Under the pieces are notes generated by a model that searched no databases, was not told the origin of the DNA, and was given only the letters and a program-made list of their open reading frames with translations. Positions 5,641-24,310 of a stretch of 28,251 bases of DNA are shown one piece after another (position 1 is the first letter of the stretch; every line of letters begins with the position of its first letter). A program made the position numbers and the translations under genes. Source of the stretch: a virus; the IMG/VR virus record IMGVR_UViG_3300045988_167927; one strand, written 5' to 3'.

Positions 5641-5666
5641 AGATTAAATTATTTCAAATTGAATAA

Positions 5667-6281: not shown

Positions 6282-6423
6282 TAGACACCTACTGCGAGAC
6301 TACGAGAGAGACGTTCGATGACGCTTGGCAGACAGAGATTAACTACTTCCTTACGGTGATAGAGTACGCAATGGAAAAGGGTAGAAAACAACTTGAAAGA
6401 CAGAGACAAATGAAACTACAACT

Positions 6424-6942: not shown

Positions 6943-7015
6943 TTCAAGGCCGAAAACTGTAAAGCATTAATATACAGCACCATTACGGTTCTATGCAGAC
7001 CTGAAAATAGATACT

Positions 7016-7032
7016 AAAAGCGTACCGCATAG
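7016..7032 (+). promoter_or_regulatory. Conserved intergenic motif AAAAGCGTACCGCATAG (copy 2)
   Basis: Exact copy, 50 nt upstream of the start at 7066. Confidence 0.5.
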
Positions 7033-7065
7033 ACAATTATATTTCAATTCAAATGAATTAAATCA

Positions 7066-9279
7066 ATGGCAAGAAAAATCATAATCAATGGAGAGGATAT
7101 TACGACCTCAAAGCAAATATCACTAAAGAACCGTACTATCGCTTCAATAGAGATAGTCGACGATGCCTTTCTTTACTTCAAGAGTGTTTCGGGCGATTTG
7201 GTCTCGCAGTATTTCATCAAGGAAAACACACAGGGCGTAGGGGGCAAGGCGGACTGCCAGTTGAAAGACGTACAACTTGGTAAGCACACACTCATTGTCA
7301 AGTACGCCGTATCAGATGACAGACAGGAGCAGTCGTATGTCATCAACGTCACAGTTATCAGTAGGGACGAGTGCTTTATCAAAATCAACAATGTGAACAA
7401 CGCCACCGATACTGTAAGTGGCGAGGGTGTGGAGAAACTATACACAATAACCACACAGAACATCACAGGCGCACTAAAGGCAGATGTGAGCGGTAACTTC
7501 GCCACTGTGGAGATAGACACTGGCACTCTGTCTGTCTTGGTGTCAAAGAACACAACGGCGATGGAGCGGAACTGTACCGTCAAGGTCTACGGCGTAAACT
7601 CCAACGGCGACACATCATACGCCTATCTCTACCTCGTCCAAAAGGCAGGTACGGAGTATGTGTCTGTCTTTGAACTGTCTATGTACGACTACAGCGTAGG
7701 CGGTAACGAGACATCTATATTCATCGACCCTGTCACTGTCAAGAACGTAAACGCTGGGAAAGTAAGCGTTACGAGCGATGTCTCTTGGGCGAGCGGTGTC
7801 TACAGCGATAGTGTTATTCAGATAGATGGTAAACCTGGCATAACAATAACCGTACAGTCAAACGACAGCGTAGGTGTCAGAGACGGAAACCTCACAGTGA
7901 CGGCCACAGGCACAGACGGTCAGAGTTTCAATCGCACAATAAAACTCCACCAGTTCGGAAACAGTGAACTACCGTACATATCAATCGACAGTGCCGAAGA
8001 TGATGATGCGTTCAAAATTGGTAACAGGAAAGGCGACAGTTGCACAGTGCGTTTCTTCTCACAGAATGTGTTTGAAAACAGTTATTCATTGATATACGAC
8101 GATTACTTCAACGAGTACATATCCATCGCCCTCAACAGAGAAAATATGACTATCACCATTACGTCAAAGTATGACAACCGTCAACCCGACGGGATTACCA
8201 TCGACTTTGTACTTCAAGGGCAAAGCACTAAACCGAAGTACAGCGACATCGTCAGCGCATACTTCACCGTTATCATCGACCCACCTGCACCGTACCTGTC
8301 ATTCCCTGTATGGAAGACAATGAACATTGAAATCCCCATTGTAACCCCATTCTATACTATTAAAAAGGGAGATGATTTAATCTTTAGTGGTAAGGTCTAC
8401 GCACAAAAGACGGATTTGGTTAGAAGTATTAATGTCAACGATATAATCGAGGATTATACAAGCGACGGTATTGACATCACATCATCGCAGAGATGGCAGA
8501 AGACAGAAAACGAGAAAGTGTTCACTCTCGCCACTGGAGCGAACGAGACGGAGATGTCAGATATGTTCAACTTGGTTGTTACAGACGACTGGTCGTATGC
8601 CGACAGGTCGAGAACATACTTCACATCAGACCCTATCTGCTACACCCTCGACAGCAGACAGTATTTCATTTTCTCCGTACAAAACAGATACGGCGACACA
8701 CTGCCCTCGTATGCGTATCAGACCGACACAATGTCAGTTGACGGTGTTGACAGCGGTGACTACAAAGTTGTGAGCGATGAGAGTTACACACAAATCATCA
8801 AGGATATATCAAACTTAAAGACAATAGACATAACAGAGATGAACAATGTAGATGATACGAGATACTTCAAGGTATGCGCTACAAAGAACAAATATTGCCT
8901 GTACTACAAGAACCTCTACGGCGGATATGATTCTATTCTCTTGAACCCTACCTCTCAACTCTCCGCAAGTATAACAGACAACACATTGACAACAGACTAC
9001 GACACAACAACGCTCAACCATTACAAACGCTCATACAGTAAGACAGTACAGAACAAGTGGACGTTAAAGACCAATCTGTTGAACGACGCACAGAGCGAGA
9101 AGATGCGACATATCTACACCTCTAACCAAATGTGGTTGCATAACCTTGAGACAGGCAAACTCTACGCTGTGAACCCTACGGACAAGACATTCACAGAAAA
9201 GACGTTCAAATCGAACAAGCACAAACCTATGTCCTACACCATAACGGTAGAGGAAGCGTACACACAGGACAGACGATAA
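7066..9279 (+). CDS. Tail protein with N-terminal BACON-like Ig repeats and a distal-tail-like C-terminal half
   Basis: 737 aa. Two repeats end in the BACON-type signature R-x-x-x-(V/L)-x-V...Q-x-(A/G): ERNCTVKVYGVNSNGDTSYAYLYLVQKAG (about 7417-7648) and VRDGNLTVTATGTDGQSFNRTIKLHQFG (about 7678-7960). Confidence 0.6.
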   Translation: MARKIIINGEDITTSKQISLKNRTIASIEIVDDAFLYFKSVSGDLVSQYFIKENTQGVGGKADCQLKDVQLGKHTLIVKYAVSDDRQEQSYVINVTVISRDECFIKINNVNNATDTVSGEGVEKLYTITTQNITGALKADVSGNFATVEIDTGTLSVLVSKNTTAMERNCTVKVYGVNSNGDTSYAYLYLVQKAGTEYVSVFELSMYDYSVGGNETSIFIDPVTVKNVNAGKVSVTSDVSWASGVYSDSVIQIDGKPGITITVQSNDSVGVRDGNLTVTATGTDGQSFNRTIKLHQFGNSELPYISIDSAEDDDAFKIGNRKGDSCTVRFFSQNVFENSYSLIYDDYFNEYISIALNRENMTITITSKYDNRQPDGITIDFVLQGQSTKPKYSDIVSAYFTVIIDPPAPYLSFPVWKTMNIEIPIVTPFYTIKKGDDLIFSGKVYAQKTDLVRSINVNDIIEDYTSDGIDITSSQRWQKTENEKVFTLATGANETEMSDMFNLVVTDDWSYADRSRTYFTSDPICYTLDSRQYFIFSVQNRYGDTLPSYAYQTDTMSVDGVDSGDYKVVSDESYTQIIKDISNLKTIDITEMNNVDDTRYFKVCATKNKYCLYYKNLYGGYDSILLNPTSQLSASITDNTLTTDYDTTTLNHYKRSYSKTVQNKWTLKTNLLNDAQSEKMRHIYTSNQMWLHNLETGKLYAVNPTDKTFTEKTFKSNKHKPMSYTITVEEAYTQDRR

Positions 9280-9304
9280 CATACACCTATAATAGACAAT
9301 ATCA

Positions 9305-12115
9305 ATGATAGAACTATACATAGACGGAAAGAGGGCGGACATCGCACAGGACAGCGACATAAAGATGACATACCAAAGCGCAGATGCCAAAGAACCAACA
9401 GCGATAAAGAACTCGTTCTCAAAGTCGCTCAACCTCGACGGCACACCAGTGAATAACTCAATATTCGGACACTGCTACAGACTTGACATCAACATTTTAG
9501 AAAGCGACAAACTCAATGGTGTTAACTTTGACCCCCGAAAGCGAGTGCCATTTGATTTAATCAACAATGGTGAGATAATTGAATCAGGATATATTAAGTT
9601 GAACACAGTAAGCGTAGAGAGCGGAAAGGTGAAATATAACATAACTCTCTACGGCAGTTTGGGCGACTTCTTCTACAACCTCGCATACAACGATGACGGA
9701 GAGCAGTTGACACTCGCAGACATCTACTTCGGGTTTGATGATGTACAGGGTAAGAGGTTAACAGAGAGCGAGGAAACAAAGGACAGGAACATCATCAAGT
9801 GGGACGCTGACTTCATCAAAGATGGTTGGAAGAAATTAAAGACAGGCGCACCAGACAACCACTCGCCCTCAAACTTCATCGTAGGCGCACCGACTTACAG
9901 CGGTTACTACGATGATTTCAATAACGACAAGTTTCTCGTAAACTACAGAACACTGACCGACAGCGAGAAACGTCTATTCCCCGATGTGGACAACGGATAC
10001 GACGGTTATGTCACAGTTACGGCACAGAGGGAGTTCGATGAATGGGAGGCGAGAGACTTGAGGGCGGTATATCAACGCCCTTGTATAAAGACCGATTTCT
10101 TGATTGACGCTATATGCAAAAGTCAGGAGAAAAACGGTTATACGGTGGAGTTGTCAGACAGTATAAGAAACAGCGAGTATTTCAACCGAACTTGGGTTAT
10201 GCTGTCAAGGTTGGACAGGGAGAACTCCACACAGTCGGGCATCTACAACTTGACGCTTGACTACAGCACAACGCCACTACAGTCGAGGTACACAAATATA
10301 CCTCTCAAGCAGGGGAACGACTACGCAATAACTGTGAACAAAAACGAGACAGTATCTTTCAACCTCTTGATTAACAACACAATTCAGTTCCCTACGAGAG
10401 TTGAGAGCGGAAAGAGTGTCGCCACATCGTTCCTTATCTCGAACAAGAAGTCGTACTACTTCCACACCAACTACGGCGGTTATGTCTATGGCATAGTGTT
10501 GAGCGATGAACAAGGCAAGGTTGTCCACATCTCGCCTATGTACTTGCACACAACAAAAATAAACAACAAGTACAACTACCTTTCAAGCGACATATACGGA
10601 AACTGGGCGGTAGACCCTGTAGCACAGTTCGGTGTATTCAAAAACAGGTTGATAACCGACATCAAGACGGATTTAGGCACTACAGACGACCTAACACTAA
10701 AGGTGGTTTACTCCGATTTGGAAGAAACTGACGACGCTACAGGCGGTTCTGTGCGCTTCAAGTTCAAGAGCGATATGAGAGTAAAGACCAATTACTACAA
10801 CGCCACAGAGACAAAGTTGAGGGCGAGACTGTTCTTCCGCCGTATATCATACGCTGTCTTGAACAACAACGCATACGACATAAGCGGTAACGCCACATTC
10901 GGTGTAGATGTCGACGACAACGGTTATTACTGGTTGCATTCAATAGGTGGATTAAATCAAATCAATATGTCTGTCAACAGCGGATTCTTCTACGGTGAAA
11001 TCAACCCCGACACCTCTGTCTCTATGGTGTCGAAGAAGATGCTGTTCGGCAATCTGCCTACACCCCTCGCTTTCCTGACTGACTATTTCAAATTGTTCAA
11101 CTCTCGTTTCGTTTTCGACCCGAAGACGAAGACGGTGAGGATAATGACGGCGAAAGAATACTATAAAGACAGTATTGTTGACATAGAGACGGACATAGAC
11201 CGCTCACAGACGTTGACGATAACACCTACTGTTATTGAGAGCAAGTATTTCCTCTACGGAATGCCTGTGGCAGAGACATACGCCGAGAGACTGTACAGTA
11301 ACAAGAACAATGTGCCATACGGTTATTACAGACTTGTAACACCATACAATTTCTCCAATGACGAAAAGGATATATTCGCAGAGAGCATCTACACAAACAC
11401 AATACCGTACAGGTTGAACTCGCAGATGTTCGGCAGGACAAAGATAGACGAGAGCACATACTACCCGACATTCGCCATTCCGTACACATATTCGTACAAC
11501 TACATGGACAACGACTTCACCCACAACGGAGCGATGGCATCTGTGGTCATACCTCGCTACACTGACGAGATACCAAAACTGTGCTGTTTTGACACAGACA
11601 ACAGTCAGGCGGACATACCTGTGTCGCTCGTATTCTTCGACGGTTTCAAGCGTTCATCTACACCTATCATCATCTCTGATACAATAGACGAGATGATAGA
11701 CACCAACGAAAACCCCTGCTACTTGTACGACAACGCCGTTGAAAAGGTGTACGACATTCCTGTGTTCTCAAAGTACCTCACAGGCGACATAGACTACGGT
11801 AGGGAGGGTTATACACACTCCCTCGACTTCGGCAGACCTGCCTCCACATTCCTCGGTGACTTGGACTATTACACAGACGACACACAGACCTTGAGCGACT
11901 ACTGGCGCACATACATCGACGACATCTACGCAAAGAACGCAAAGACTGTCAAGTTGAAAGCGAGGATAAAGGGAAGACCAAATGACGCTATGAGGGTGTT
12001 TTACGCATTTGACAACTCCCTGTGGTTGCTGTTGAGATTGGACAACTACAACCCGAACGACACCCTGTCAGATGCGACATTCGTCAAAATAGACAGCACC
12101 AGCAATTATATTTAA
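9305..12115 (+). CDS. Large tail/baseplate (Tal-like, host-recognition) protein
   Basis: 936 aa. The N-terminus MIELYIDGKRADIAQDSDIKMTY...SKSLNLDGTPVNNSIFG is typical of phage tail hub/fibre proteins. Flanked by other tail genes. Confidence 0.55.
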   Translation: MIELYIDGKRADIAQDSDIKMTYQSADAKEPTAIKNSFSKSLNLDGTPVNNSIFGHCYRLDINILESDKLNGVNFDPRKRVPFDLINNGEIIESGYIKLNTVSVESGKVKYNITLYGSLGDFFYNLAYNDDGEQLTLADIYFGFDDVQGKRLTESEETKDRNIIKWDADFIKDGWKKLKTGAPDNHSPSNFIVGAPTYSGYYDDFNNDKFLVNYRTLTDSEKRLFPDVDNGYDGYVTVTAQREFDEWEARDLRAVYQRPCIKTDFLIDAICKSQEKNGYTVELSDSIRNSEYFNRTWVMLSRLDRENSTQSGIYNLTLDYSTTPLQSRYTNIPLKQGNDYAITVNKNETVSFNLLINNTIQFPTRVESGKSVATSFLISNKKSYYFHTNYGGYVYGIVLSDEQGKVVHISPMYLHTTKINNKYNYLSSDIYGNWAVDPVAQFGVFKNRLITDIKTDLGTTDDLTLKVVYSDLEETDDATGGSVRFKFKSDMRVKTNYYNATETKLRARLFFRRISYAVLNNNAYDISGNATFGVDVDDNGYYWLHSIGGLNQINMSVNSGFFYGEINPDTSVSMVSKKMLFGNLPTPLAFLTDYFKLFNSRFVFDPKTKTVRIMTAKEYYKDSIVDIETDIDRSQTLTITPTVIESKYFLYGMPVAETYAERLYSNKNNVPYGYYRLVTPYNFSNDEKDIFAESIYTNTIPYRLNSQMFGRTKIDESTYYPTFAIPYTYSYNYMDNDFTHNGAMASVVIPRYTDEIPKLCCFDTDNSQADIPVSLVFFDGFKRSSTPIIISDTIDEMIDTNENPCYLYDNAVEKVYDIPVFSKYLTGDIDYGREGYTHSLDFGRPASTFLGDLDYYTDDTQTLSDYWRTYIDDIYAKNAKTVKLKARIKGRPNDAMRVFYAFDNSLWLLLRLDNYNPNDTLSDATFVKIDSTSNYI

Positions 12116-12142
12116 ATTAAATCAAAACATTCATCTTAATCA

Positions 12143-14896
12143 ATGGCAGAGCAGAACATACTCAACATAACATTAAAGGACTACCGCAAGCAGATTAACG
12201 ACTTGCGTTCAGAACTGCTTGGTCTCGACAAGACAAGCGCAGAGTATGCGAGGATAGCGGACGACATTCGTCAGAAGCAGTCAAAACTGAACGAGGTTAT
12301 GAGCGTAGGCAAGGGTAACGCAGACGCTTTGGACGGCAGTTACAACGCCCTCACACATCAGATGGCGGAGTTGCGCAAGCAGTGGAAAGCGACAAACGAC
12401 GAGGCGGAGAGAGAGGTCTTGGGCAAGCAGATACTCTCAATCAACAACCAGTTGAAAGGAATGGACGCATCAATAGGCAACTGGCAGAGAAACGTAGGCG
12501 ATTACTCCAACGCATTTGTCGAGGCATTCAGTCAGATGGGCGTATCACTTGGAGGTGCGGCCAAAGGGTTCAATCTCGCCACAACAGCATCGGCAGGGTT
12601 CAAGACGGCGTTAGACCTGTTGAAAGCGCACCCTATCATCGCAGTGCTTACGCTCTTGGTCGCCATCTTCCTGAAGTTGAAGAGCGCAATCTCGGAGAAC
12701 GCCACACTCTCGGCGAAATGGAGCAAGGCGTTAGCGACATTCAAACCTATCATCAACGCCATCATCAATGTCATAGACTGGTTGGCAGGAATACTCGTCG
12801 ACCTGTTCTCTATCATAGCGGAGAACATTCCAAAGGTAGTGAAGATGATAGGCAGTGGTGCGAAAACAATCACAAATATATTGGGCAACATTGTCGACAT
12901 TGTCTTGTTCATACCAAGCAAGGTGATAGAGGCGTTCGCTTGGTTGGGGCAGAAGATTTCACAGTTCCTCAACGCAGTTATGCACACCGTCGCAAAGGTT
13001 GCTGACGCTATCGGTTTGGACACACTCGCAAACGGCATACGCAACGTAGGCGACAGCATTGATTCATTTGTCAAGAGCGCATCGAATGGCATCACCAACC
13101 TCGTAAAGAACGCAGGAACGTATGTGAAACAGGTCGGCACAAGCATTGACAAATGGGCGAACTCGCTCTCAAACAGTATGATAAAGGCGAGAAAGGCGGA
13201 AAGTGACCGTCAGAAACTCGCTAAAGATACAAGGGAAGAACAAGTCAAGATAGCGGAGAGTGAAAAACGTCAGGCGGACTTGAGGTTGAAAGCGGCGCAA
13301 CACACAGGCAAGGAGCGTCTGAAGTACCTCAAGTTGGTGATGAAAGAGATAGAGGCAAACGGAAAGCGACAGGTTGCCCTCGCCAAAGAACAGTATAGAC
13401 AGGCAGAGTATTTTGCATCACTAACACCTACAGATGTTGAGGGTAAGAAGAGACTTGCCGAACTCAAGGCAAATGTCACAAAGGCAGAGGTCACTTACAA
13501 GCGTTCTATGGTCGAGATGCAGACACAATCGACAGAGATTCAGAACCGAATAGCGAACGAGTCAAAGGCGACAACTGGGGTCGTACAGAAAGAGAACAAG
13601 AAAAGGGTCGACAGCACAAAGAACGCCCTAAAGGAAAGTGCGGAGGATTTCAAGAAATTCATACAAGATGTTAATGAAAACATAAAAAACGAGGATTCAT
13701 TCACCAAGCAGTTGCTTGATGATTCAAACCAACAGGTTGAACTGCTCAAGTCGATAGGCAAGTACACAGTAGCAGAACAGTTCAAAGCAGAAGAAGAACG
13801 AACCAAGATTGTCAAAGAGGGCATCAAAAACAGGGGGACCATACTTGACGATGCACTACAGCACTTGAGGGATATAGGCAAGACAGAGACAGACGACTAC
13901 CGCAAAATCGAGGCGCAGAAGATGAATATCAACTACGAATATCTCAAAGAGTCTGCTCAAAACCAAATCAATATCAACAAGATAAAACTCGAGAACGAAA
14001 AGGAGACCTACGAAAACATTGTCAAGGCGAGAGAGGAAATGTTCAATAGGGGTTCTGTCGAGAACACAATGAAACAGTCCGAGGACTATGTGGGCATAAC
14101 AGACCAATATCTGAACGGTCTCATCACCTACGAGGATTACCAACAGCAACTTGCCGATATGGACTCAAGATATAAACAACTTGAAATTGACAGGCAGATA
14201 GAAGCAGATGAGTTGAAGTTACAAGAACTTCAAAACTACTACGACCAAGTGTTTGCGATTACTGGTGCTAACTCCGAACAACTGAAAGACATTCAACAGC
14301 AGATAACCGCTACAGAGATTTCGCTCGAACAACAAAAGAGTAACCGCTTGAAACAGATTGCCGACAATGATGTGAAGCAGAAGCAGAAAAACGATAAGGC
14401 GGAAGAAAAACTGCTTAAATTAAAACAGAAACGAGAGCAGAACAACCTCAATACCTACAGCAAGTTCTCAAGTGCGATGCAGTCTATAATGGGAGAGAAC
14501 TCCAAGGCGACAAAGGCACTCGCCATCACAGATGCTGTGGTCTCAACTTGGGTAGGTGCTAACAAGATACTCAAGGAAGGCCCGTCTGCATACGGCCCTG
14601 GCCCTATCGGTGTTGCGTTGATGTACGCCTCTATGGCAGGAGAAATCGCAACAGGTATAGCAAATGTCAAGAACATTATGAGCGAAAAGAACGAGGGTGC
14701 ATCTTCCGCAGTAAACTCAACTGTATCAACTTTATCAACGGCACAGGTAACTCCGTTATTGGACGAAAACCAAAACAACATACCGACACCTATGTATGAT
14801 GTCAACGGAGGAAATCAGAGAGTTTATGTCGTTGAGAGCGATATAACCGATGTTCAACGTCGAGTTCAAGTGTCAGAGTCGGAAAGTTCATTTTAG
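12143..14896 (+). CDS. Tail tape measure protein
   Basis: 917 aa with long K/E/Q-rich coiled-coil stretches. Hydrophobic segments include IIAVLTLLVAIFL and INAIINVIDWLAGILVDLFSIIA. A G/A-rich C-terminal segment reads GPSAYGPGPIGVALMYASMAGEIATGIANV. Confidence 0.8.
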   Translation: MAEQNILNITLKDYRKQINDLRSELLGLDKTSAEYARIADDIRQKQSKLNEVMSVGKGNADALDGSYNALTHQMAELRKQWKATNDEAEREVLGKQILSINNQLKGMDASIGNWQRNVGDYSNAFVEAFSQMGVSLGGAAKGFNLATTASAGFKTALDLLKAHPIIAVLTLLVAIFLKLKSAISENATLSAKWSKALATFKPIINAIINVIDWLAGILVDLFSIIAENIPKVVKMIGSGAKTITNILGNIVDIVLFIPSKVIEAFAWLGQKISQFLNAVMHTVAKVADAIGLDTLANGIRNVGDSIDSFVKSASNGITNLVKNAGTYVKQVGTSIDKWANSLSNSMIKARKAESDRQKLAKDTREEQVKIAESEKRQADLRLKAAQHTGKERLKYLKLVMKEIEANGKRQVALAKEQYRQAEYFASLTPTDVEGKKRLAELKANVTKAEVTYKRSMVEMQTQSTEIQNRIANESKATTGVVQKENKKRVDSTKNALKESAEDFKKFIQDVNENIKNEDSFTKQLLDDSNQQVELLKSIGKYTVAEQFKAEEERTKIVKEGIKNRGTILDDALQHLRDIGKTETDDYRKIEAQKMNINYEYLKESAQNQININKIKLENEKETYENIVKAREEMFNRGSVENTMKQSEDYVGITDQYLNGLITYEDYQQQLADMDSRYKQLEIDRQIEADELKLQELQNYYDQVFAITGANSEQLKDIQQQITATEISLEQQKSNRLKQIADNDVKQKQKNDKAEEKLLKLKQKREQNNLNTYSKFSSAMQSIMGENSKATKALAITDAVVSTWVGANKILKEGPSAYGPGPIGVALMYASMAGEIATGIANVKNIMSEKNEGASSAVNSTVSTLSTAQVTPLLDENQNNIPTPMYDVNGGNQRVYVVESDITDVQRRVQVSESESSF

Positions 14897-14916
14897 ATTA
14901 CATTAAATATTGATAC

Positions 14917-14950
14917 AGAGACCGTTAGCGATGACGGTCTCTATTTTATT
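14917..14950 (+). terminator. Rho-independent terminator after the tape measure gene
   Basis: Perfect 9-bp stem AGAGACCGT (14917-14925) / ACGGTCTCT (14934-14942), 8-nt loop, then ATTTTATT. Confidence 0.8.
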
Positions 14951-15010
14951 CAATCATCAATATGTTTTGATTTAATCAAAATTGAACGATAAATATTTTT
15001 TTTATATATT

Positions 15011-15645
15011 GGTGTACGAGAGCGGATAATATCCCCACATCACTGCTTAGAGGGGTGAAACAATAAAACCCCTTAAATGGGCAAGTTCATCGAAACGTAG
15101 GTTCAGTGCGAACTATTCAACGCCGAGTAGATTTCTTGACTATCCAAACCTTTAAGCAAATAAGTGCTTATCCGCACTCCTACATACAGGGGAGAAAGAG
15201 AGAGCGTAATTGCCCCGATTGCTTGCTTAGATGCTTCCAGTTTACGCCGCTCCACTACAGAGCGAAGAACGCACTATACGTTTTAATGGTTTTCAAACGG
15301 TAAAAACCAGTCATACAACGCAATCCTGTTGCTGAAAGGGAGCAACGTCCTCTACCAGGGTCTGACGACTCCCGACTGCACATCGACAATGCGGTGACAG
15401 GACAAATTGCGGTTCGGTAAATGCCGTAGCACTTGGAGGGTGATTACGGAACTTCTGGATAACGGGAGTGTGCAGGGTCGAATGTATGGCGGTAGAGTGT
15501 AGTGACTCGAAGAATGCACTATCCCATCCTTTTATTTATTTAAGAATTTAATTATTGATTCTTTTATTATTAAAGAGGGTGGAGATAGGTGCAGGATATA
15601 AAGACCCTGGTGTATCTAATCGTAATCTCATAATTCTCATGAGAA
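15011..15645 (+). ncRNA. Candidate large structured RNA with group I (IA2-like) intron core motifs; boundaries approximate
   Basis: This is the largest ORF-free gap in the genome (14897-15876), and its core is visibly more G+C-rich than its AT-rich flanks. It contains multiple nested complementary segments and core-like strings, detailed in the first finding. Confidence 0.5.
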
Positions 15646-15696
15646 ATTCATAAATCAATAATAGAAAAACAAAACGAGGATATGTTCATAACGTAT

Positions 15697-15835
15697 CACT
15701 GCGACGCTCCGATACACTCTCGTTCCATACATAACATCATACGACCTCCACAGATGCGATATAACGCACTAAAACCTTTCCGACATACAACTAATAACCT
15801 ACGCCCTTAGAGTGCGTCAGAATCGCTCATTTAAC
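15697..15835. repeat. Noncoding repeat family X, copy 1 (most diverged)
   Basis: Shares CTGCGACGCTC and ACCTACGCCCTTAGAGTGCGTCAGAATCGCTCATTTAACGCT with the copies at 25206-25316 and 25682-25811. Confidence 0.55.
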
Positions 15836-15876
15836 GCTTAAACAGTATTCTATATATTAATCAAAACACCGCTCAA

Positions 15877-16968
15877 ATGACTAAACTCCCAATATACGAG
15901 GCACTAATTTCTTCGGAAGATGACGGTATCATCACAATATCTCTTGTTGACGACCCTGCCGTTGAGTCTGATTTCGTCTGTTTTGCAAAAGACGGAGGTA
16001 AACAGTTATTCGCCCTGTCAGACACTTCGGAACACCTAATCACTGGTTGTCTTATGAAAGCGGATACACCGATTTATCGCAACGATAACGGTTACGAATA
16101 CTACATAGTATTTTCAAAGGAAACGATAAAGACAATGGCGCAGAAGATGCTTGCAGACTCCACTTTCAAGAATATCGACCTGCAACACAACGGTGAACTG
16201 CTTCCATGTGATTCGCTTATACTTACCGAGGTGTACATCAAGGATTCAAATAAAGGCATAGACCCAAACTTTGTTGACATTCCCGACGGTTCGTTGATGA
16301 CGACGTTCAAGGTGGTAGACGAAAGCATTTGGCAGGAGTGTGTTGAGGGCGAGTATCTTAATGGATTCTCTTTAGAGGGTTTCTTCGATACAAAGCAGAT
16401 TGACTTTTCTAAAAATAAACCAAATAAAATAAATTCATTCAAGATGAGAATAAAGGAAATGTTACGCCGTATGCTTGCGCAGTTCGGCGAGGTGTCGATG
16501 GACGAGTTGACGCTCTATTACGAGGGTGACGGTGAAATCGAGGTAGGCACCAATGTTACCGACATCGACGGAAACCCTGTCGCTGACGGCGAGTACCACA
16601 ACGCCGAAATGACCGTAAAGGTTGTGGACGGCAAGGTTGACGCTATCGAGTACTTCGAAAAGGAAAATGATGATGAACCAGAAACCGATGTTGTGGACGA
16701 GGAACTTGAGGAAAACGATGAAACTGTAGTAGATGAAACAGTGGTTGAAGAACCTGCCAATGAAGAACCTGTGGTTGACATCGAAAAGGAACTCGCTGAC
16801 TTACGCTCTATGGTCGAGGAACTAAAGAAGAGGGTTGACGATATGGTCGCAGAACCAGTGGTAGACCCGATTGAAGAGGAGTTCAGCAAGAAATTCAGGA
16901 GCGACATCACCGACAAAAAGGTGCAAAGAGCGGTTGAAATCGCAAGGGCGTTACACTCAAAGGCATAA
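15877..16968 (+). CDS. XkdF-like prohead protease fused to an acidic scaffold-like C-terminal region
   Basis: The N-terminal region LVDDPAVESDF...YYIVFSKETIKTMAQKMLADSTFKNIDLQHNG resembles the XkdF putative phage serine protease family. The C-terminal third is very D/E-rich and helical. Lies directly upstream of the capsid gene. Confidence 0.65.
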   Translation: MTKLPIYEALISSEDDGIITISLVDDPAVESDFVCFAKDGGKQLFALSDTSEHLITGCLMKADTPIYRNDNGYEYYIVFSKETIKTMAQKMLADSTFKNIDLQHNGELLPCDSLILTEVYIKDSNKGIDPNFVDIPDGSLMTTFKVVDESIWQECVEGEYLNGFSLEGFFDTKQIDFSKNKPNKINSFKMRIKEMLRRMLAQFGEVSMDELTLYYEGDGEIEVGTNVTDIDGNPVADGEYHNAEMTVKVVDGKVDAIEYFEKENDDEPETDVVDEELEENDETVVDETVVEEPANEEPVVDIEKELADLRSMVEELKKRVDDMVAEPVVDPIEEEFSKKFRSDITDKKVQRAVEIARALHSKA

Positions 16969-16994
16969 CATAAATGTTATGCTGTAAACGGCGT

Positions 16995-17011
16995 AAAAGC
17001 GTACCGCATAA
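16995..17011 (+). promoter_or_regulatory. Conserved intergenic motif AAAAGCGTACCGCATAA (copy 3)
   Basis: Exact 16-nt core, preceded by a perfect 9-bp hairpin GCATAACAT-AA-ATGTTATGC that overlaps the upstream stop codon. Lies 95 nt upstream of the capsid gene start. Confidence 0.5.
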
Positions 17012-17089
17012 CGGACACATAGCACTCAACAGTAAATAACTTATTTCTATTTAAGTTAAAATAAACTAAAGCAAAAAACATTATTAACA

Positions 17090-18001
17090 ATGGCAAATCC
17101 TATTGTAACATCATTACCAAAATACGTTGAACAACACATATTGCCTCTTATCTCAAAGAGCGTATTAGGAAGTAAATCAGCAAGTTTGTTCAACCTCTTG
17201 ACTGGTGTCAAAGGCGACACCGCACTCAACCTGCTTGCAACAGATGTGACCTTGCAGTCAGCAAAGACTTGCGGTTGGAACGCAGACGGCACTACCACCC
17301 TCTCACAACGCATCGTTAAACCTGCGTACCTCAAGGTTAACCACAACTTCTGTGACAAGCAGTTGCTCAACACTTGGGCGAATTACGAGGTGAAGATTGC
17401 GGCCGGTCAAAAGACCCTCCCATTTGAGGAAGACTTTGTTAACGGTATCGTTGAGCAGGTCAAGGAGCAAATTGAAAAGATGATTTATCAAGGCACAAAG
17501 GCGAAAGAAGATGAGTTCGAGGGTCTTATCTCTATCCTCACCGACGACGCAACCACCATCAAGGTGAACAAGACCAAGGGCACAAGCGCATACGAGGCAA
17601 TCAAGGCGGTGTACGCATCAATGCCCGAAGAGGTTGTCTCTAAAGACGACGCTGTTATCCTTGTGGGCGCAGGCATCTTCCGCCAGTTCATTCAAGAGTT
17701 GGTTTCAGCAAACCTCTACCACTTTGAACCAAACAGCGCAGCGGGCGAATACAAACTTCCTGGCACTGAACTCCGAGTTATCTCTGTGAACGGTCTCAAC
17801 GGCGTTGCAGACAGCGATGTGATTATCGGCGCAAGACTCTCCAACCTGTTCTATGCGACTGATTTGCAGGGCGATGAAGAGAAGTTCGAACTGTGGTACT
17901 CTCAAGACAACAGGGAGTTCCGTCTCGCTATCGAGTTCATCGCAGGTGTGCAATATGCGTATGGTGATGAAATCGTACTCGGCAAAATCGCTAAAGCATA
18001 A
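17090..18001 (+). CDS. Major capsid protein
   Basis: 303 aa, positioned immediately after the protease/scaffold gene. Size and composition are typical of small HK97-fold capsid proteins. Confidence 0.7.
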   Translation: MANPIVTSLPKYVEQHILPLISKSVLGSKSASLFNLLTGVKGDTALNLLATDVTLQSAKTCGWNADGTTTLSQRIVKPAYLKVNHNFCDKQLLNTWANYEVKIAAGQKTLPFEEDFVNGIVEQVKEQIEKMIYQGTKAKEDEFEGLISILTDDATTIKVNKTKGTSAYEAIKAVYASMPEEVVSKDDAVILVGAGIFRQFIQELVSANLYHFEPNSAAGEYKLPGTELRVISVNGLNGVADSDVIIGARLSNLFYATDLQGDEEKFELWYSQDNREFRLAIEFIAGVQYAYGDEIVLGKIAKA

Positions 18002-18093
18002 CATAGTGTAAACCAAATAGAGACTATGGGTGGTGTGCATCGCCACCCTGTAGGTCTCAAGACAATAACGACACCTAACACAATAGATAACAA

Positions 18094-18609
18094 ATGAGTT
18101 GTACAGCATATACTTTAAAAGGTATCACTAACGACTGCTCGGCCTCAAAGGGCGGTATCAGAGAAATCTACATCGCAGACTGGGAAAAGGACATCTTTAC
18201 AGTTGGCGAGACTGCTGACACCGTCACCGCATTGAAGACCGAGGCAAAGTGGTACAAATACTACATCAAGAAAAACACATCATCGTTCACATCTACAGCG
18301 ACCATTGATTTGGCAAATGGTGTGAATTACGTTAGCACCGAACTCGCACTTGTCTTTACAAAAATGGAGACAGCGAAGCGAGTTGAAATGAGCGCACTCT
18401 TGCTCAACGACGTTGCAGTGCTTGTTGTTGATGCCAACAATAAGGTATGGTGTCTTGGGTTGAATAATCCAGTCAACGCCACCGCAGGTACTGGCGAAAC
18501 TGGCACAGCGGCCACCGATGGCAACAAGTACACCATCACACTCACTGACGAGAGCGACACTTTCCCATTCGAGTATTCGGGTGAACTCCCTGCAAGCGCA
18601 AACGCATAG
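18094..18609 (+). CDS. Major tail (tube) protein
   Basis: 171 aa. The pattern ...VVDANNKVWCLGLNNPVNATAGTGETGTAATDGNKYTITLTDES... resembles siphovirus major tail protein families. Followed by a strong terminator. Confidence 0.6.
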   Translation: MSCTAYTLKGITNDCSASKGGIREIYIADWEKDIFTVGETADTVTALKTEAKWYKYYIKKNTSSFTSTATIDLANGVNYVSTELALVFTKMETAKRVEMSALLLNDVAVLVVDANNKVWCLGLNNPVNATAGTGETGTAATDGNKYTITLTDESDTFPFEYSGELPASANA

Positions 18610-18637
18610 TATCAACCACATAAACCTTAAATACATG

Positions 18638-18672
18638 GATACGGAGCAGTCATACTCCGTATTCTTTTTTTT
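18638..18672 (+). terminator. Rho-independent terminator
   Basis: 8-bp stem ATACGGAG (18639-18646) / CTCCGTAT (18655-18662) followed by TTCTTTTTTTTC. Confidence 0.8.
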
Positions 18673-18716
18673 CTGTATGTTTCAATCAAATGATTTTTTA
18701 AACGATTGATTTAATT

Positions 18717-18822
18717 ATGTTTACTACGAAAGAACTTGAGAGCGAATGGGATTGACTGTACAAGACCGACTCTATGGCGACTCCGTCAAGACCTCGGTCT
18801 AATCAATAGACACTAAACCAAG
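18717..18822 (+). pseudogene. Decayed relic of an HNH homing endonuclease gene (paralog of 1720-2241)
   Basis: ATGTTTACTACGAAAGAACTTGAGAGCGAATGGGATTGA matches the first codons of 1720-2241 (MFTEKELESEKW versus MFTTKELESEWD*). GACTCCGTCAAGACCTCGGTCTAA...ACACTAAACC matches its 3' end (2187-2232). The middle of the gene is absent. Confidence 0.65.
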
Positions 18823-18853
18823 AATACGAGACAAAACCGTCTCGTATTTTTTT
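18823..18853 (+). terminator. Rho-independent terminator
   Basis: 9-bp stem ATACGAGAC (18824-18832) / GTCTCGTAT (18839-18847), loop AAAACC, then a T7 run. Confidence 0.8.
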
Positions 18854-18881
18854 ATATTTTAAATAAAACCATAGTAAACAA

Positions 18882-19148
18882 ATGGCGTTAAGTTTTAAAG
18901 AGTTAGAGGTCAAAGATAAAATCTCGTATATCCTCTGTGTTGCATCGTTTATCTGCGGAGCGGTATTGACTTTTTTTGGGGTTTTCCTCGCACCTGTTGG
19001 CATTATAGATGCTTCAATTTTAACGTCATTGGGCATCTTCCTCTCGTTTAGCGGTGCGCTCATCGGAATAAACACACATTATTCAAAAGAGTTACACACA
19101 TTCAAGACCGAGGTACAAAAGACAATCAAGGAAAAACAAAAAGAATAA
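18882..19148 (+). CDS. Small two-TMD membrane protein, holin-like
   Basis: 88 aa with two hydrophobic helices (ISYILCVASFICGAVLTFFGVFLAPVG and ILTSLGIFLSFSGALIGI) and a charged C-terminal tail. Not adjacent to the endolysin. Confidence 0.35.
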   Translation: MALSFKELEVKDKISYILCVASFICGAVLTFFGVFLAPVGIIDASILTSLGIFLSFSGALIGINTHYSKELHTFKTEVQKTIKEKQKE

Positions 19149-19175
19149 CAAAGGATTAAGATAAAGAAATATAAA

Positions 19176-19397
19176 ATGAGAGTAAGTAACGAGCAAGTAT
19201 TCGGCGTACCGAACACATCATTCGGTGTAAGCGGTTCAGCAAGCGGTTTCACACTGAATTATTCCGTTGACGGTAACACTTGGGGAGTATGGTCAGAGGC
19301 GACAAAGGCGAATGAACCTTTGTTTGTTGTCAACGTCCCAAAGTTTATGAAGTATAAGTTGGTGGGCAACACCGAGCAAGTGGAGGTGCGTTGGTGA
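19176..19397 (+). CDS. Hypothetical small protein
   Basis: 73-aa ORF, tightly packed against the next gene (TGA then ATG 2 nt later). Confidence 0.45.
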   Translation: MRVSNEQVFGVPNTSFGVSGSASGFTLNYSVDGNTWGVWSEATKANEPLFVVNVPKFMKYKLVGNTEQVEVRW

Positions 19398-19398
19398 T

Positions 19399-20670
19399 AT
19401 GATTATAGATTTCGATAGCAAACAACAGGGCGGTGGTTCTAAACCGCCAGTGGTGGAAGCGTTGTCTGTAACAGAGAACGGCACATACAATGCTCCGTCA
19501 GGTGTGGACGGTTACAACCCTGTGACGGTGAATGTTCAGAGCGGTGGTGGCGGAAAGTTCGGGATAGGATTTAACCGTATCGCCTTATCTACTAAAGCAC
19601 AAACTATTGATTTATCAAACCTCGATCCGAGCACATTGACAGATATGGGCAGTATGTTCGAATACTGTGAAAACCTCACCTCACTCGACCTGTCGGGTTG
19701 GGACACAAGTAATGTGACAGATATGAATAGTATGTTCTATTATTGTTCATCGCTCACCTCACTCGATGTGTCAGGGTGGGATACAAGCAAGGTGACGAAT
19801 ATGAATAAAATGTTCAGTTATATCAAACTCACCTCACTCGACCTGTCAAGTTTCAATACAGCAAATGTGACAGATATGGGGGGTATGTTCTATAATTGTT
19901 CATCACTCACCTCACTCGATGTGTCAGGGTGGGATACAAGCAAGGTGACGAATATGAATAAAATGTTCAGTTATATCAAACTCACCTCACTCGACCTGTC
20001 AAGTTTCAATACAGCAAATGTGACAGATATGGGGGGTATGTTCTATAATTGTTCATCACTCACCTCACTCGATGTGTCACATTTCGACACAGCGAATGTG
20101 ACGAGTATGAACAGTATGTTCTCGTATTGTAAAAACCCCACTACTCTAAACCTGTCGGGTTGGGATACAAGCAAGGTGACGAATATGAATAGTATGTTCT
20201 CGTATTGTTCATCACTCACCTCACTCGACCTGTCACATTTCGACACAAGCAAGGTGACGAGTATGTACAATATGTTCTCGTATTGTGAAAACCTCACCTC
20301 ACTCGACGTATCACATTTCAATACAGCGAATGTGACGAATATGAATAGTATGTTCTCGTATTGTTCAAAACTCAAATCACTCGATGTGTCAGGTTGGGAT
20401 ACAAGCAAGGTGACGAATATGAATAGTATGTTCTCTGGTTGTTCATCACTCGAGACAATAAACTGCGACGGTCTGAAATTACCAAATATAAATCTCAGCG
20501 ATATACATTTGGACAGTTCACCACTCACAGTCGAGAGTATCGTAGGACTATTGAACGCCCTGCCACAGTCAACGAACAACTACAGTTTCCAAATCGGTGC
20601 TGACAACATCGCCAAACTGTCAGACATGCAAAAACAGATAGCAACCGACAAGGGTTGGACGCTTGTGTAA
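19399..20670 (+). CDS. BspA-like / DUF285-type leucine-rich-repeat protein (likely receptor-binding or surface-adhesion virion protein)
   Basis: 423 aa with about 11 tandem 25-26-aa units of the form LTSLD(L/V)S(G/H)(W/F)(D/N)T(S/A)(K/N)VT(N/D)M(N/G)xMF(S/Y)YCxx. Confidence 0.9.
   Translation: MIIDFDSKQQGGGSKPPVVEALSVTENGTYNAPSGVDGYNPVTVNVQSGGGGKFGIGFNRIALSTKAQTIDLSNLDPSTLTDMGSMFEYCENLTSLDLSGWDTSNVTDMNSMFYYCSSLTSLDVSGWDTSKVTNMNKMFSYIKLTSLDLSSFNTANVTDMGGMFYNCSSLTSLDVSGWDTSKVTNMNKMFSYIKLTSLDLSSFNTANVTDMGGMFYNCSSLTSLDVSHFDTANVTSMNSMFSYCKNPTTLNLSGWDTSKVTNMNSMFSYCSSLTSLDLSHFDTSKVTSMYNMFSYCENLTSLDVSHFNTANVTNMNSMFSYCSKLKSLDVSGWDTSKVTNMNSMFSGCSSLETINCDGLKLPNINLSDIHLDSSPLTVESIVGLLNALPQSTNNYSFQIGADNIAKLSDMQKQIATDKGWTLV
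19474..19695. repeat. 5' module shared with the short LRR gene (matches 23179-23400)
   Basis: About 222 bp, nearly identical (I saw one mismatch, tacaaTgct versus tacaaCgct). Confidence 0.9.
19753..20079. repeat. Perfect tandem duplication, period 153 bp (2.1 copies), inside the LRR gene
   Basis: Position p equals p+153 for p = 19753-19926. This duplicates exactly two LRR units (51 aa, SGWDTSKVTNMNKMFSYIKLTSLDLSSFNTANVTDMGGMFYNCSSLTSLDV). Confidence 0.92.
20428..20659. repeat. 3' module shared with the short LRR gene (matches 23437-23668)
   Basis: About 232 bp that appear identical, encoding MFSGCSSLETINCDGLKLPNINLSD...QKQIATDKGW. Confidence 0.9.
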
Positions 20671-20700
20671 TTGATTAAATCAAACCTAAATTTAATTAAA

Positions 20701-20729
20701 CAAGAGGCAAAACCGCTTCTTGTTTTTTT
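20701..20729 (+). terminator. Rho-independent terminator
   Basis: Stem CAAGAGGC / GCTTCTTG (one G-U pair), loop AAAACC, then a T7 run. The loop is the same as in the terminator at 18823-18853. Confidence 0.7.
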
Positions 20730-20757
20730 CTATTTATAGGTAAAACATTACTAATTT

Positions 20758-21078
20758 ATGGTTTTAGTCAAGAATAAGGCAGACTCGCCCACAACGATAT
20801 ACCCACCAAAGACTGTGACGAAATCGGTCAAGGAGTTGACGCTAACACTCCACTCGATTTCGTCGAATACGGACTACACATTCCCTGTTGACGACACAGG
20901 GGCGTTGAGGGACTACTACGAGATTGAGGTCGATTTCAGTGCGATGCCTGACGGTGAATACCAATACACCATAGGTTGTGACAGCGGACTACTCGTAATC
21001 GGAGACTACAAGGAGAAACGTAAAGAACAAAACAAGCAATACGATGCAGAAACAAAATACTACCAATACCAAGGATAA
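20758..21078 (+). CDS. Hypothetical protein
   Basis: 106-aa ORF that overlaps the portal gene start by 35 nt. Confidence 0.45.
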   Translation: MVLVKNKADSPTTIYPPKTVTKSVKELTLTLHSISSNTDYTFPVDDTGALRDYYEIEVDFSAMPDGEYQYTIGCDSGLLVIGDYKEKRKEQNKQYDAETKYYQYQG

Positions 21079-22150
21079 AAACAAGTCGTTTAGGTTTAGT
21101 GCGATAAACCGAGAGACTACGTCAAACATAATCCCCGACATCGAGGTAGAGTCCACAAACAGCGGTTTCATCTACTGGGGAGAGGATAACTCGTACCCTA
21201 ACTATATCCACCACCTCTACGAGACTGCCACACCCTTGCGCTCATGTATAGCGTCACTGGTTGACTATGTATGTGGAGACAGTGTGGACAGTGAAATAGA
21301 CGGTATGGAGAAAAAGGTGAGGTGCATAGCGACACAGTACGCCTTGTACGGTTGCTTTGCCATCAATGTGTTGAGAAACCGATTCGGAGAGGTGTGTGAC
21401 ATCATACCGATTGATGTAAGATGCCTACGCTCGAACAAGTCCAACACAGAGTTCTTCTATAGCGAGAACTTCAAGGAGATACGAAAGTGGCAGAGGTACA
21501 AGTGCCTCAAGTACCCAGTGTACGACCCTGACAGGAAAGAGATAGCGTCAAGCATTTACTTCTATAAGAACACCCTGTTCCGAACCTACGGTGAACCAAT
21601 TTACAAGTCCGCCCTGTTGAGTGCGGAGTGTCAGAGTGCTATTAATGAGTATAACATCAACTCATTGAACAACGGCATCACAAGCAATGTAATCATCAAC
21701 TTCAACAACGGAATACCCGATGAGCAACAGCAGAGCGAGATTGAGGATATGGTATATGAAAAGTTCTCATCGTTCAGAAACGCCTGTCGACCTATGATTA
21801 ACTTCGCAGACGATGCAGACCACTCCCTTACAGTGGAGAGGATTGATGTCGACGACTTTGTTGAACGTTATGGAGCACTCGCCAAGCGCAGTGCCGACGA
21901 GATATACTCCGCATTCCGAATGTCGCCGATGTTGGCAGGTATCACTATAGACAACAACGGATTCGCAGAGCAGGACTTCGAGGGTGCTTATCGCCTGTTC
22001 AACAAGACGGTGGTGCAACCGCTCCAAAAGGACATCGTAAACGGAATCAACAACCTCTTGGGCGATAACGCTGTATCTATAACACCGTTCAACATCAAGT
22101 GGGAAGACACAGCAGATGATAATAACCAAAATGTAAACGAGATTAACTGA
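21044..22150 (+). CDS. Portal protein
   Basis: 368 aa. FIYWGEDNSYPNYIHHLYETATPLRSCIASLVDYVCGD and FRMSPMLAGI are typical portal-family motifs. Confidence 0.8.
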   Translation: MQKQNTTNTKDKNKSFRFSAINRETTSNIIPDIEVESTNSGFIYWGEDNSYPNYIHHLYETATPLRSCIASLVDYVCGDSVDSEIDGMEKKVRCIATQYALYGCFAINVLRNRFGEVCDIIPIDVRCLRSNKSNTEFFYSENFKEIRKWQRYKCLKYPVYDPDRKEIASSIYFYKNTLFRTYGEPIYKSALLSAECQSAINEYNINSLNNGITSNVIINFNNGIPDEQQQSEIEDMVYEKFSSFRNACRPMINFADDADHSLTVERIDVDDFVERYGALAKRSADEIYSAFRMSPMLAGITIDNNGFAEQDFEGAYRLFNKTVVQPLQKDIVNGINNLLGDNAVSITPFNIKWEDTADDNNQNVNEIN

Positions 22151-23701: not shown

Positions 23702-24310
23702 ATGAAGATATTAATCGACAATGGACATGGGGTCAACACCGCAGGCAAGCGTTCACCTAAAGGCGGAAAGTATGGTGTACTCTATGAATGGAAATACGCA
23801 AGGGAAATAGCGAGACCACTTGTGGACAGGTTGAAGAAATTAGGTTATGACGCTGAACTCGTTGTGACAGAGGACAACGATGTGTCACTCGGTGAGCGAT
23901 GCCGTAGAGTAAACAGGTGGTGTGATAAACTTGGTGCGAAGAACTGTCTCTTTGTGTCAATTCATTCAAACGCTTCGTCAGATTGTTCAACTTGGCAGAA
24001 ACCTAACGGTTGGTGTGAGTTTGTTTACACTAAAGCATCAAGTGCATCAAAGCGACTTGCACAGTGCCTTTATGATGAGGCGTACAAGAGGGGGTTGAAA
24101 GGTAATAGAAGCGTTCCCGATTGTAGGTATTGGACAGCGAATTTCTATGTACTTAAAAACACCAAGTGCCCTGCTGTGCTTACGGAGAATATGTTCTATG
24201 ACAATATGGAGGATTACGAGTTCCTGCTCTCGGAGACTGGCAGGGAAACGATAATTGACTTGCACATTGACGGCATAGTGAAATACATCAAAGGACTTGA
24301 GAGCAAATGA
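23702..24310 (+). CDS. N-acetylmuramoyl-L-alanine amidase (endolysin)
   Basis: MKILIDNGHGVNTAGKRSP, SIHSNA and LTENMFYDN correspond to the Amidase_3-type zinc-ligand and catalytic motifs. Confidence 0.88.
   Translation: MKILIDNGHGVNTAGKRSPKGGKYGVLYEWKYAREIARPLVDRLKKLGYDAELVVTEDNDVSLGERCRRVNRWCDKLGAKNCLFVSIHSNASSDCSTWQKPNGWCEFVYTKASSASKRLAQCLYDEAYKRGLKGNRSVPDCRYWTANFYVLKNTKCPAVLTENMFYDNMEDYEFLLSETGRETIIDLHIDGIVKYIKGLESK

Follow-up and report, generated by a model that had tools for sequence, protein, structure and literature searches.

A large structured non-coding RNA in an optional cassette among the late genes of a temperate gut phage

What occupies a gap of 980 nucleotides (nt) between two + strand genes, one ending at 14896 and the other starting at 15877, in a temperate phage of the human gut? 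The gap (14897-15876) lies in the IMG/VR virus record IMGVR_UViG_3300045988_167927, a stretch of 28,251 nt that was analysed at its full length and is referred to here as the window. The original prediction for this locus, made from the letters of the window, had placed in the gap a structured RNA with a core like that of a group I (IA2) intron or, failing that, a different large phage RNA. We find that about 600 nt of the + strand constitute a real, intricately folded non-coding RNA of three domains, the probable ends of which were placed from the position of a promoter-like motif and from where conservation and pairing stop:

15017..15617, + strand: structured RNA

A folded non-coding RNA lies in the gap

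The + strand of 15005-15620 folds at -186 kcal/mol (z = -3.7, with none of 20 shuffles folding as well), compared with z = -1.7 for the - strand. The protein sequence of the protease encoded immediately downstream was utilized as a query, retrieving more than 1000 homologues from public metagenomes, and the contigs of these homologues were looked up for the element. Six distinct versions of the RNA were recovered from related gut-metagenome phages, with the following protease identities to the window:

window-type version: 100%
L017 version: 92%
L013 version: 85%
L031 version: 84%
L020 version: 83%
L022/L023 version: 83%

The RNA versions are 77-94% identical in pairwise comparisons, whereas the 4-fold sites of the capsid gene are mostly 69-81% identical in the same genomes; that the RNA is 80-94% identical where these sites have diverged so far argues for selection upon it. 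A structure was derived by an all-against-all scan of the alignment columns, followed by curation of the helices by hand, and was then tested on the six-sequence alignment, where it comprises 112 pairs in 17 helices. Standard pairs were observed in 97.5% of cells, versus 90.6% in shuffles and 39-47% in slid controls. Both sides had changed in 30 of the 112 pairs, versus 15.9±2.4 in shuffles, none of 500 of which reached 30, and 1-3 in slid controls; covariation among relatives, one of the features that had been proposed for checking, was thus found. Within the supported pairs G·U outnumbers A·C by 71 to 6, G·U making up about 11% of them, and the folded molecule is therefore that of the + strand, as had been predicted, and is much likelier to be RNA than DNA.

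The gap had also been described as oversized, devoid of any credible open reading frame (ORF) and richer in G+C at its centre, and all three descriptions were borne out: the next largest gap is of 272 nt, the longest ORF in the gap is of 65 amino acids (aa), and the G+C fraction is 0.40-0.55 over approximately 15000-15500, versus 0.26-0.32 in the flanks. A recoded protein gene was rejected, as TAA, TAG and TGA are each present in all six frames of the gap and the variable alignment columns have no 3-nt periodicity (72/54/59 per codon position). No single stop-codon reassignment opens a long frame in 14897-15876, and most indels between the RNA versions of the relatives are of 1 nt. The stretch 15017-15617 is non-coding.

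Architecture of the RNA

The three domains and their helices are as follows:

15018..15179, +: domain I, a long irregular hairpin
15023-29/15168-74, 15038-40/15164-66 and 15047-53/15149-55, +: domain I helices
15082-85/15135-38 and 15089-91/15130-32, +: further domain I helices, capped by an apical hairpin
15186..15309, +: domain II
15189-92/15213-16, +: invariant GGGG/CCCC helix
15204-09/15242-47, +: pseudoknot helix, crossing the GGGG/CCCC pairing
15218-21/15238-41, +: hairpin with an invariant 16-nt loop, CUUGCUUAGAUGCUUC; three pair types
15248-52/15260-64, +: hairpin; 3 both-side changes
15266-71/15279-84, +: hairpin
15287-93/15303-09, +: hairpin; 2 both-side changes
15310..15617, +: domain III
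15313-17/15611-15, +: outer helix, stacked on the long-range helix 15355-63/15602-10
15328-33/15341-46, +: hairpin
15376-82/15469-75, +: helix enclosing two covarying hairpins
15424-34/15438-49 (invariant loop UUGGAGG) and 15452-57/15463-68, +: the two enclosed hairpins
15495-98/15505-08, +: small hairpin
15516-33/15573-92, +: G·U-rich hairpin of 19 base pairs (bp) with an AT-rich tip

In domain I, both sides have changed in six of the seven pairs of helix 15047-53/15149-55, and at least three sets of pairs are seen in helix 15023-29/15168-74. L031 and L017 have a different, longer domain I, which is joined to differing versions of the remaining RNA; because the alternative occurs on different backgrounds, domain I is a swappable module. 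The pseudoknot helix of domain II changes from GCGUAA/UUACGC to GUAGGA/UCCUAC, with four positions compensated. Domain III is closed by the long-range helix of 9-11 bp, in which double compensation is found in L017, and its helices have one to three both-side-changed pairs each, with the exception of 15328-33/15341-46 and the core of the small hairpin (15495-97/15506-08). Two perfect complementarities exist between invariant segments, CUUCCA/UGGAGG and GGCAAGU/GCUUGCU, and contacts formed by them could link all three domains; the proposed loop-loop contacts are 15234-39/15434-39 and 15080-86/15221-27. Two copies of the 7-mer GUGCAGG are present in the RNA, each covarying with a CUGCAC-type partner. 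A direct repeat, CGAAGAAYGCACTAT, is also present within the RNA (15263-15277 and 15508-15522), each copy following a small hairpin.

When the ten helices listed in the original prediction were compared with this structure, five were confirmed by compensatory changes in the relatives. These are 15022-29/15168-75, 15287-93/15303-09, 15354-63/15602-11, the long hairpin 15516-29/15578-92 and, as regards its core at 15204-09/15242-47, the helix 15202-09/15242-52. One further helix, 15328-33/15341-46, is compatible with the relatives without real covariation. The remaining four have uncompensated changes in two to five of the six sequences. Helices 15051-56/15068-73 and 15368-74/15463-69 each overlap an alternative that stays paired and covaries, as does the P7.2-like helix 15475-79/15504-08, which is broken in four of the six sequences. 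The P4-like helix 15186-90/15325-29 is paired in 23 of 30 cells and uncompensated in three of the six sequences, and its alternative stays paired, without covariation. The pairing 15376-82/15469-75, which had been listed as a competing one, is itself supported by covariation.

The RNA is carried by an optional cassette

Alignment of the junctions in relatives placed the RNA within an insert bounded by the shared tail of the upstream terminator and the shared proximal promoter of the head genes. The insert, and the occupancy of the site amongst the relatives, are as follows:

14957..15825: optional insert of about 870 nt, made up of promoter-like motif, RNA gene, palindrome and C-rich spacer
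L018, L019, L030: site empty (96-114 nt between the genes)
L021, L024-L029, L113: opposite-strand HNH/NUMOD4 endonuclease gene, no RNA
window, L013, L020, L022, L031: RNA
L017: HNH gene plus RNA

The terminator tail runs straight into the proximal promoter of the head genes in L018 and L030, where the gaps are of 96 and 114 nt, and the flanking tail and protease genes are thus adjacent in close relatives. Perfect 10-nt direct repeats (TTAATCAAAA, 14972-81 and 15857-66) bracket the cassette. The RNA was found with six protease variants and was missing with seven, and it is carried by about half of the very close relatives; the proteases of the empty-site L018, L019 and L030 are 82-85% identical to that of the window and their capsid proteins about 96-97%. 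The presence of the RNA is discordant with the protease tree, and its pattern of similarity disagrees with that of the neighbouring capsid gene, as in a mosaic module. These conflicts indicate that the cassette moves by recombination, and the intergenic site is a recombination hotspot.

Beyond the close relatives, 80 distant IMG/VR loci (26-60% capsid identity), as well as L009 and L011, had no room for the RNA and gave no profile match, an nhmmer profile recovering no copy from the 80 loci. Deposited phages had no match to the element by blastn and tblastn, GTDB representative genomes had none by protein or DNA pattern, and exact-string scans of IMG/VR returned either nothing or chance 16-17-mers that failed the profile. 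An apparent absence in L006 and L007 was rejected, as these contigs simply start inside the element. An analogous RNA in the 537-852 nt 'ORF-free' stretches of distant relatives was likewise rejected: the one inspected, L044 3180-3773, is a tail gene in which TGA is sense, and the nine loci with such stretches had no Rfam match. Stretches of the same length are present in L040, L042, L043 and L089. The tail gene continues through an in-frame TGA, and the IMG/VR relatives with about 57% capsid identity appear to translate this codon as sense, so that 'ORF-free' gaps obtained with the standard code are spurious.

Several assemblies break within the element. Three from a single Hadza gut study start exactly at T15571, in the AT-rich hairpin tip, one of them with an Illumina adapter fused; in two others unrelated sequence is joined at 15461 and 15488, and L023 starts at approximately 15030. 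The original libraries are those of Rampelli 2015, among them SRR1929408 and SRR1929485. The breaks at 15571, 15461 and 15488 could be due to AT-related coverage dropout, to assembly breaks in strain mixtures or to a real DNA break. On the contigs themselves, breaks in the element fall at:

L002 9573-9695
L006 1-30
L007 1
L010 3585

Predicted expression signals around the RNA

The following signals were located on either side of the RNA:

14917..14942, +: intrinsic terminator of the upstream 917-aa tail-module gene (11-bp stem, then a T run), bounding the variable site on its left
14982..15010, +: promoter-like motif of the RNA, TTGAAC-N15-TATATATT, from a consensus scan
15637..15646: perfect 10-bp palindrome, TCTCATGAGA, invariant in all six versions whilst the preceding 20 nt vary
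15650..15828, +: spacer rich in C and poor in G, with little structure
15830..15858, +: proximal promoter-like motif of the protease/capsid operon, TTTAAC-N15-TATATATT

The terminator hairpin together with TATTTTATTCAAT is present in most relatives, with or without the RNA. The promoter-like motif of the RNA is kept in six of six versions, even above the differing domain I, and transcription would be expected to start near 15017. Over 30 nt this motif is 70% identical to that ending 19 nt before the ATG of the protease gene, the TTTAAC...TATAT core of which is also found in the empty-site and most other relatives, in a more diverged form in L021, L024, L025 and L113. Three copies of the composite motif exist on the + strand of the window, all of them intergenic, and the third is found 14 nt ahead of the ATG at 3695, where the packaging genes begin. 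As this class of promoter is that of the virion operons, the RNA is probably made late in lytic growth.

The palindrome may be a protein-binding site. The spacer that follows has a GC skew of -0.30 to -0.50 and a fold z of -1.5, and is possibly a Rho-loading region or an untranslated spacer. Part of it is present without the RNA in L021 and L028, whilst L031 is without 15660-15763 yet keeps the RNA. This loss in L031, and the occurrence of the proximal head promoter in most RNA-less relatives, suggest that the RNA is a unit separate from the head operon. A pairing of the AT-rich hairpin tip (15551-60) with 15653-62 was rejected, being uncompensated in relatives. The segment 15198-15211 (GAGAGAGCGTAATT) is exactly complementary over 14 nt to the + strand at 28136-28149, where approximately 0-0.1 chance matches are expected. 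An antisense target in the window was rejected, as this 14-mer is the only candidate and the segment is replaced in L013-type variants, so that the match is probably due to chance.

A probable accessory RNA acting in trans, or a possible leader of the head operon

We consider it probable, at roughly 0.6, that the element is an RNA of about 600 nt, transcribed independently and late and acting in trans, which is not required for virion assembly and is carried as optional cargo. The RNA would be transcribed on its own, late in lytic growth and alongside the virion genes; its 3' end would form past the closing helix, possibly where a termination factor acts in the C-rich spacer and the transcript is then trimmed, and it would work in trans as a folded molecule. 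The invariant loops CUUGCUUAGAUGCUUC and UUGGAGG, and likewise the segment GGCAAGU, probably serve to hold the three domains together or to contact a partner. Since close relatives do without it, the RNA would not be needed to build virions, and it would more likely confer a conditional advantage, be it in the handling of host factors, in counter-defence or in competition with related phages.

A number of points weigh against this interpretation. The covariation comes from only six versions, about 77-94% identical, and the scored structure was chosen on those same six sequences, which inflates the contrast with the slid controls and makes the controls somewhat generous. The segments 15383-15423 and 15476-15494 and the junctions fall outside the assigned helices, and the proposed loop-loop segments never vary and hence give no covariation signal. 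Promoter, transcript ends and timing were read from sequence motifs; the trans-acting accessory role is a guess from context, the antisense search in the window having yielded no target or partner; and the family is narrow, not being found in IMG/VR, GTDB representative genomes or deposited phages. Lastly, there is no intrinsic terminator between the RNA and the protease gene, so that read-through, and hence a role in cis, is possible.

Such a role would make the element a leader, the 5' part of a long protease/capsid messenger RNA, which would control the head operon, for instance through termination-resistant RNA polymerase, through a more stable message or through a structural switch gating read-through into the head genes. 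The element does lie directly upstream of the protease gene on the same strand, with no terminator intervening; however, a promoter-like motif of the head operon itself is found 19 nt ahead of the ATG, both in relatives with the RNA and in most of those lacking it, and in seven close relatives the same genes are expressed although the element is missing. Together with the RNA, the insert contributes about 210 nt of additional conserved spacer, though a C-rich, G-poor, unstructured spacer better fits a zone of termination than a regulated expression platform. Complementarities of 7-20 nt between the RNA (15016-27 and 15482-15501) and the spacer (15712-32) are not kept by compensation, and in L031, which keeps the RNA, the complementary spacer segment was lost with 15660-15763. 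Alternative pairings would be permitted by the duplicate, covarying GUGCAGG 7-mer, yet an element of 600 nt and 17 helices far exceeds the known RNAs of processive antitermination. On balance a cis-acting leader is unlikely, although it is the main rival.

Relation to group I introns

That the element descends from a phage group I (IA2) intron, as a free-standing or degenerate form without exons and perhaps with guanosine-dependent cleavage, is very improbable, and the intron itself was rejected. Like the IA2 introns of T4 (td and nrdB) and Twort, the element is phage-borne, is a structured RNA of a few hundred nt and has homing-endonuclease genes nearby; unlike them, it has no exons or splice-site context and no match to the model, and it has a promoter-like motif of its own. 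It interrupts no gene, being preceded by a terminated gene and followed downstream by a promoter-like motif and an ATG, and relatives without it have a plain intergenic spacer of 96-114 nt and no joined reading frame. The HNH homing-endonuclease genes, although common at the site, lie outside the RNA on the opposite strand and are present also where the RNA is not.

The original prediction had drawn on short strings resembling the td core, and these do occur in the window in td order: ACGACU, AGGGUC...GUGACUCGAA, and GAUAUAA, which precedes the closing helix's 3' strand. The overall similarity to the td core is nonetheless no better than that of shuffles (Smith-Waterman score 25, versus a mean of 19.2 and a maximum of 30), and short strings of this kind are insufficient for an intron call. 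The R- and S-like strings cannot form the GACU/AGUC P7, and the P4-like and P7.2-like pairings are those found above to be uncompensated in relatives. The helices supported by covariation are nested, with the exception of the local pseudoknot in domain II, and do not include a P3/P7 pseudoknot that has a P8 in between.

RF00028, the Rfam model of group I introns, is a weak instrument in that, at its gathering threshold of 50 bits, it misses both the td and nrdB introns (L112, T4 136000-147000). In a permissive covariance-model search it found the td intron, serving as a positive control, with 40.3 bits and an E value of 2.5e-8, whilst no match at E<=10 was obtained on 14850-15920 or on the L017 variant. 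As the same mode detects td, the missing match is meaningful, though not absolute. The strong covariation and the lack of an Rfam match support the other option that had been offered, namely a different large phage RNA. In a separate comparison, 15116-15138 (TCAACGCCGAGTAGATTTCTTG) was seen to resemble the end of T4 td exon 1, the target of I-TevI (TCAACGCTCAGTAGATGTTTTCTTG); a td exon or I-TevI site at 15116-38 was rejected, the likeness not being significant relative to shuffles and the segment belonging to domain I helices.

It is scarcely plausible that the element acts as DNA, as a single-stranded or cruciform structure such as a replication or packaging signal or an endonuclease target: covariation by itself cannot tell RNA from single-stranded DNA, the site is a hotspot of recombination and homing, and the assembly ends at 15571 and joins at 15461 and 15488 could reflect a physical break in the AT-rich hairpin tip, but the G·U content and the scarcity of A·C are typical of RNA and of one transcribed strand, G·T being poor in DNA, the conserved promoter-like motif is correctly placed and oriented, close relatives manage without the element, which would not hold for an origin or packaging site, and 10 kb separate it from the terminase genes, and breaks from the samples of one study, in 48 nt of almost pure A+T, are explained more simply by dropout or strain mixture.

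Comparison with known RNA families and systems

Bacteria and phages have few RNAs that both exceed about 500 nt and possess an elaborate conserved fold, and the large ones that are known are ribozymes, parts of large machines or self-assembling RNA cages. With Rfam 15, no family reached its gathering score anywhere in the window, and the models that had been suggested for the element (group I, GOLLD, ROOL, HEARO and raiA), and OLE in addition, gave no match to it. A permissive Rfam search of the element and of the L017 variant returned only chance-level matches, and a link to a known family through the alternative 5' domain of that variant was rejected, there being no Rfam match. The element is not described in the published catalogue of phage structured RNAs or in a 2026 preprint on prophage RNA arrays, supplementary sequence sets excluded. 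By these comparisons the RNA appears to be a family not previously catalogued.

GOLLD and ROOL are the nearest analogues in kind: like the present RNA of about 600 nt, they are large, multi-domain, pseudoknotted and non-coding and are encoded by phages and prophages, and they share with it a patchy distribution, the lack of an associated protein and an unknown function. In GOLLD the 5' part varies and the 3' part is conserved, and its expression goes up during phage lysis (bioRxiv 10.1101/2024.12.08.627333). The present RNA is divided in the same manner, and the rise of GOLLD at lysis fits the late-type promoter proposed for the present RNA. It matches neither Rfam model, however, and lies between tail and head genes; GOLLD and ROOL are often found beside tRNA clusters, whereas no tRNA gene is present in the 28-kb window. 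ROOL and GOLLD assemble into multimers; no sign of such self-assembly was seen for the present RNA, the candidate palindromic loops of which are AT-rich and uninformative.

We hold it doubtful, though worth stating, that the RNA founds a new class of large ornate phage RNAs and has its own biochemistry, as either a ribozyme or a higher-order particle like those of ROOL and GOLLD. If so, it would be a late-made, swappable cargo that manipulates the host or outcompetes related phages, and the invariant loops CUUGCUUAGAUGCUUC and UUGGAGG would be active or contact sites. The fold is compact and well supported, and its confinement to one optional cassette, at a fixed position in the genome of a temperate gut phage, makes for a convenient experimental setting. 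Near-identical natural relatives exist with and without the RNA, and their comparison could reveal its benefit to the carrier, which is unknown for GOLLD and ROOL.

Morons of lambdoid and HK97-like phages are extra transcription units between genes that are adjacent in relatives. The cassette resembles them in being inserted between two late genes that are neighbours in close relatives, in being optional and exchanged by recombination, and in having a terminator before it and a promoter-like motif that is probably its own. It differs in carrying a large structured RNA in place of a protein gene and in that no terminator of its own was found. Morons are typically expressed from the resting prophage, which is not expected here, as the promoter resembles those of the virion genes. 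The extra-cargo slots of phage late operons can thus hold RNA genes besides protein genes.

The packaging RNA (pRNA) of phi29, of about 170 nt, is essential for packaging in all phages of its kind. Like it, the RNA described here is a phage-encoded structured RNA rather than a message and lies in the virion-gene region, with which it is apparently co-expressed; unlike it, it is of about 600 nt and is missing from close relatives with the same portal, terminase and capsid genes. The UG27 non-coding RNA arrays consist of repeated short hairpin units beside a reverse transcriptase and two accessory ORFs (bioRxiv 10.64898/2026.09.22.753630). Both are structured non-coding regions in prophages of gut Bacteroidota (Bacteroidota/Bacillota for the arrays, and probably Bacteroidota for the present RNA), but the present case is a single non-repetitive fold of 600 nt. 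No reverse-transcriptase domain was recorded or found among the phage proteins checked.

Phage context of the window

The source of the window is a temperate phage, of which it covers the late-gene region, and which is known only from human-gut metagenomes. This context is provided by protein-domain assignments for integrase, amidase, XkdF-type protease, portal and terminase genes, and the type of integrase suggests a host of the Bacteroidota. The prophage is carried on contigs of 130-243 kb, such as ERZ28621049 scaffold_3, and the capsid cluster P0121 comprises 602 members. The phage is present in Hadza and other human cohorts. The main genes are:

223-1356, -: tyrosine integrase (SAM_5 and Arm-binding domains)
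1720-2241: NUMOD4/HNH endonuclease
4426-5640: large terminase subunit
7066-14896: three large genes, the last resembling a tape-measure protein
15877-16968, +: XkdF-type protease
17090-18001: 303-aa capsid protein, assigned via a homologue with a Phage_capsid domain
21044-22150: portal protein
23702-24310: amidase

The order of the late genes (4426-22150) is unusual, in that the terminase is followed by three very large genes, then by the protease and capsid genes, with the portal gene some 3 kb past the capsid gene. The gene following a 73-aa gene (19399-20670) varies among contigs with an identical protease, encoding 423 aa in the window and 372 aa in L002, L003 and L006, and being fragmented in L001. 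Its counterparts are located at 13523-14582 in L001 and 13523-14641 in L002, and those of the relatives bear DUF285 and leucine-rich (LRR) repeats. It may be a fast-changing host-recognition gene.

NUMOD4/HNH_3 endonuclease genes were found at at least three different intergenic sites within this phage lineage, at the following positions:

window: 1720-2241
L017: 2458-2940 and 6812-7321
L021: 2101-2835
L024: 2224-2874
L025: 2063-2869
L028: 2234-2746
L113: 2336-2878
L013: 6764-7297

The encoded proteins range from 160 to 268 aa, and such differences in length between close relatives suggest active homing at several hotspots.

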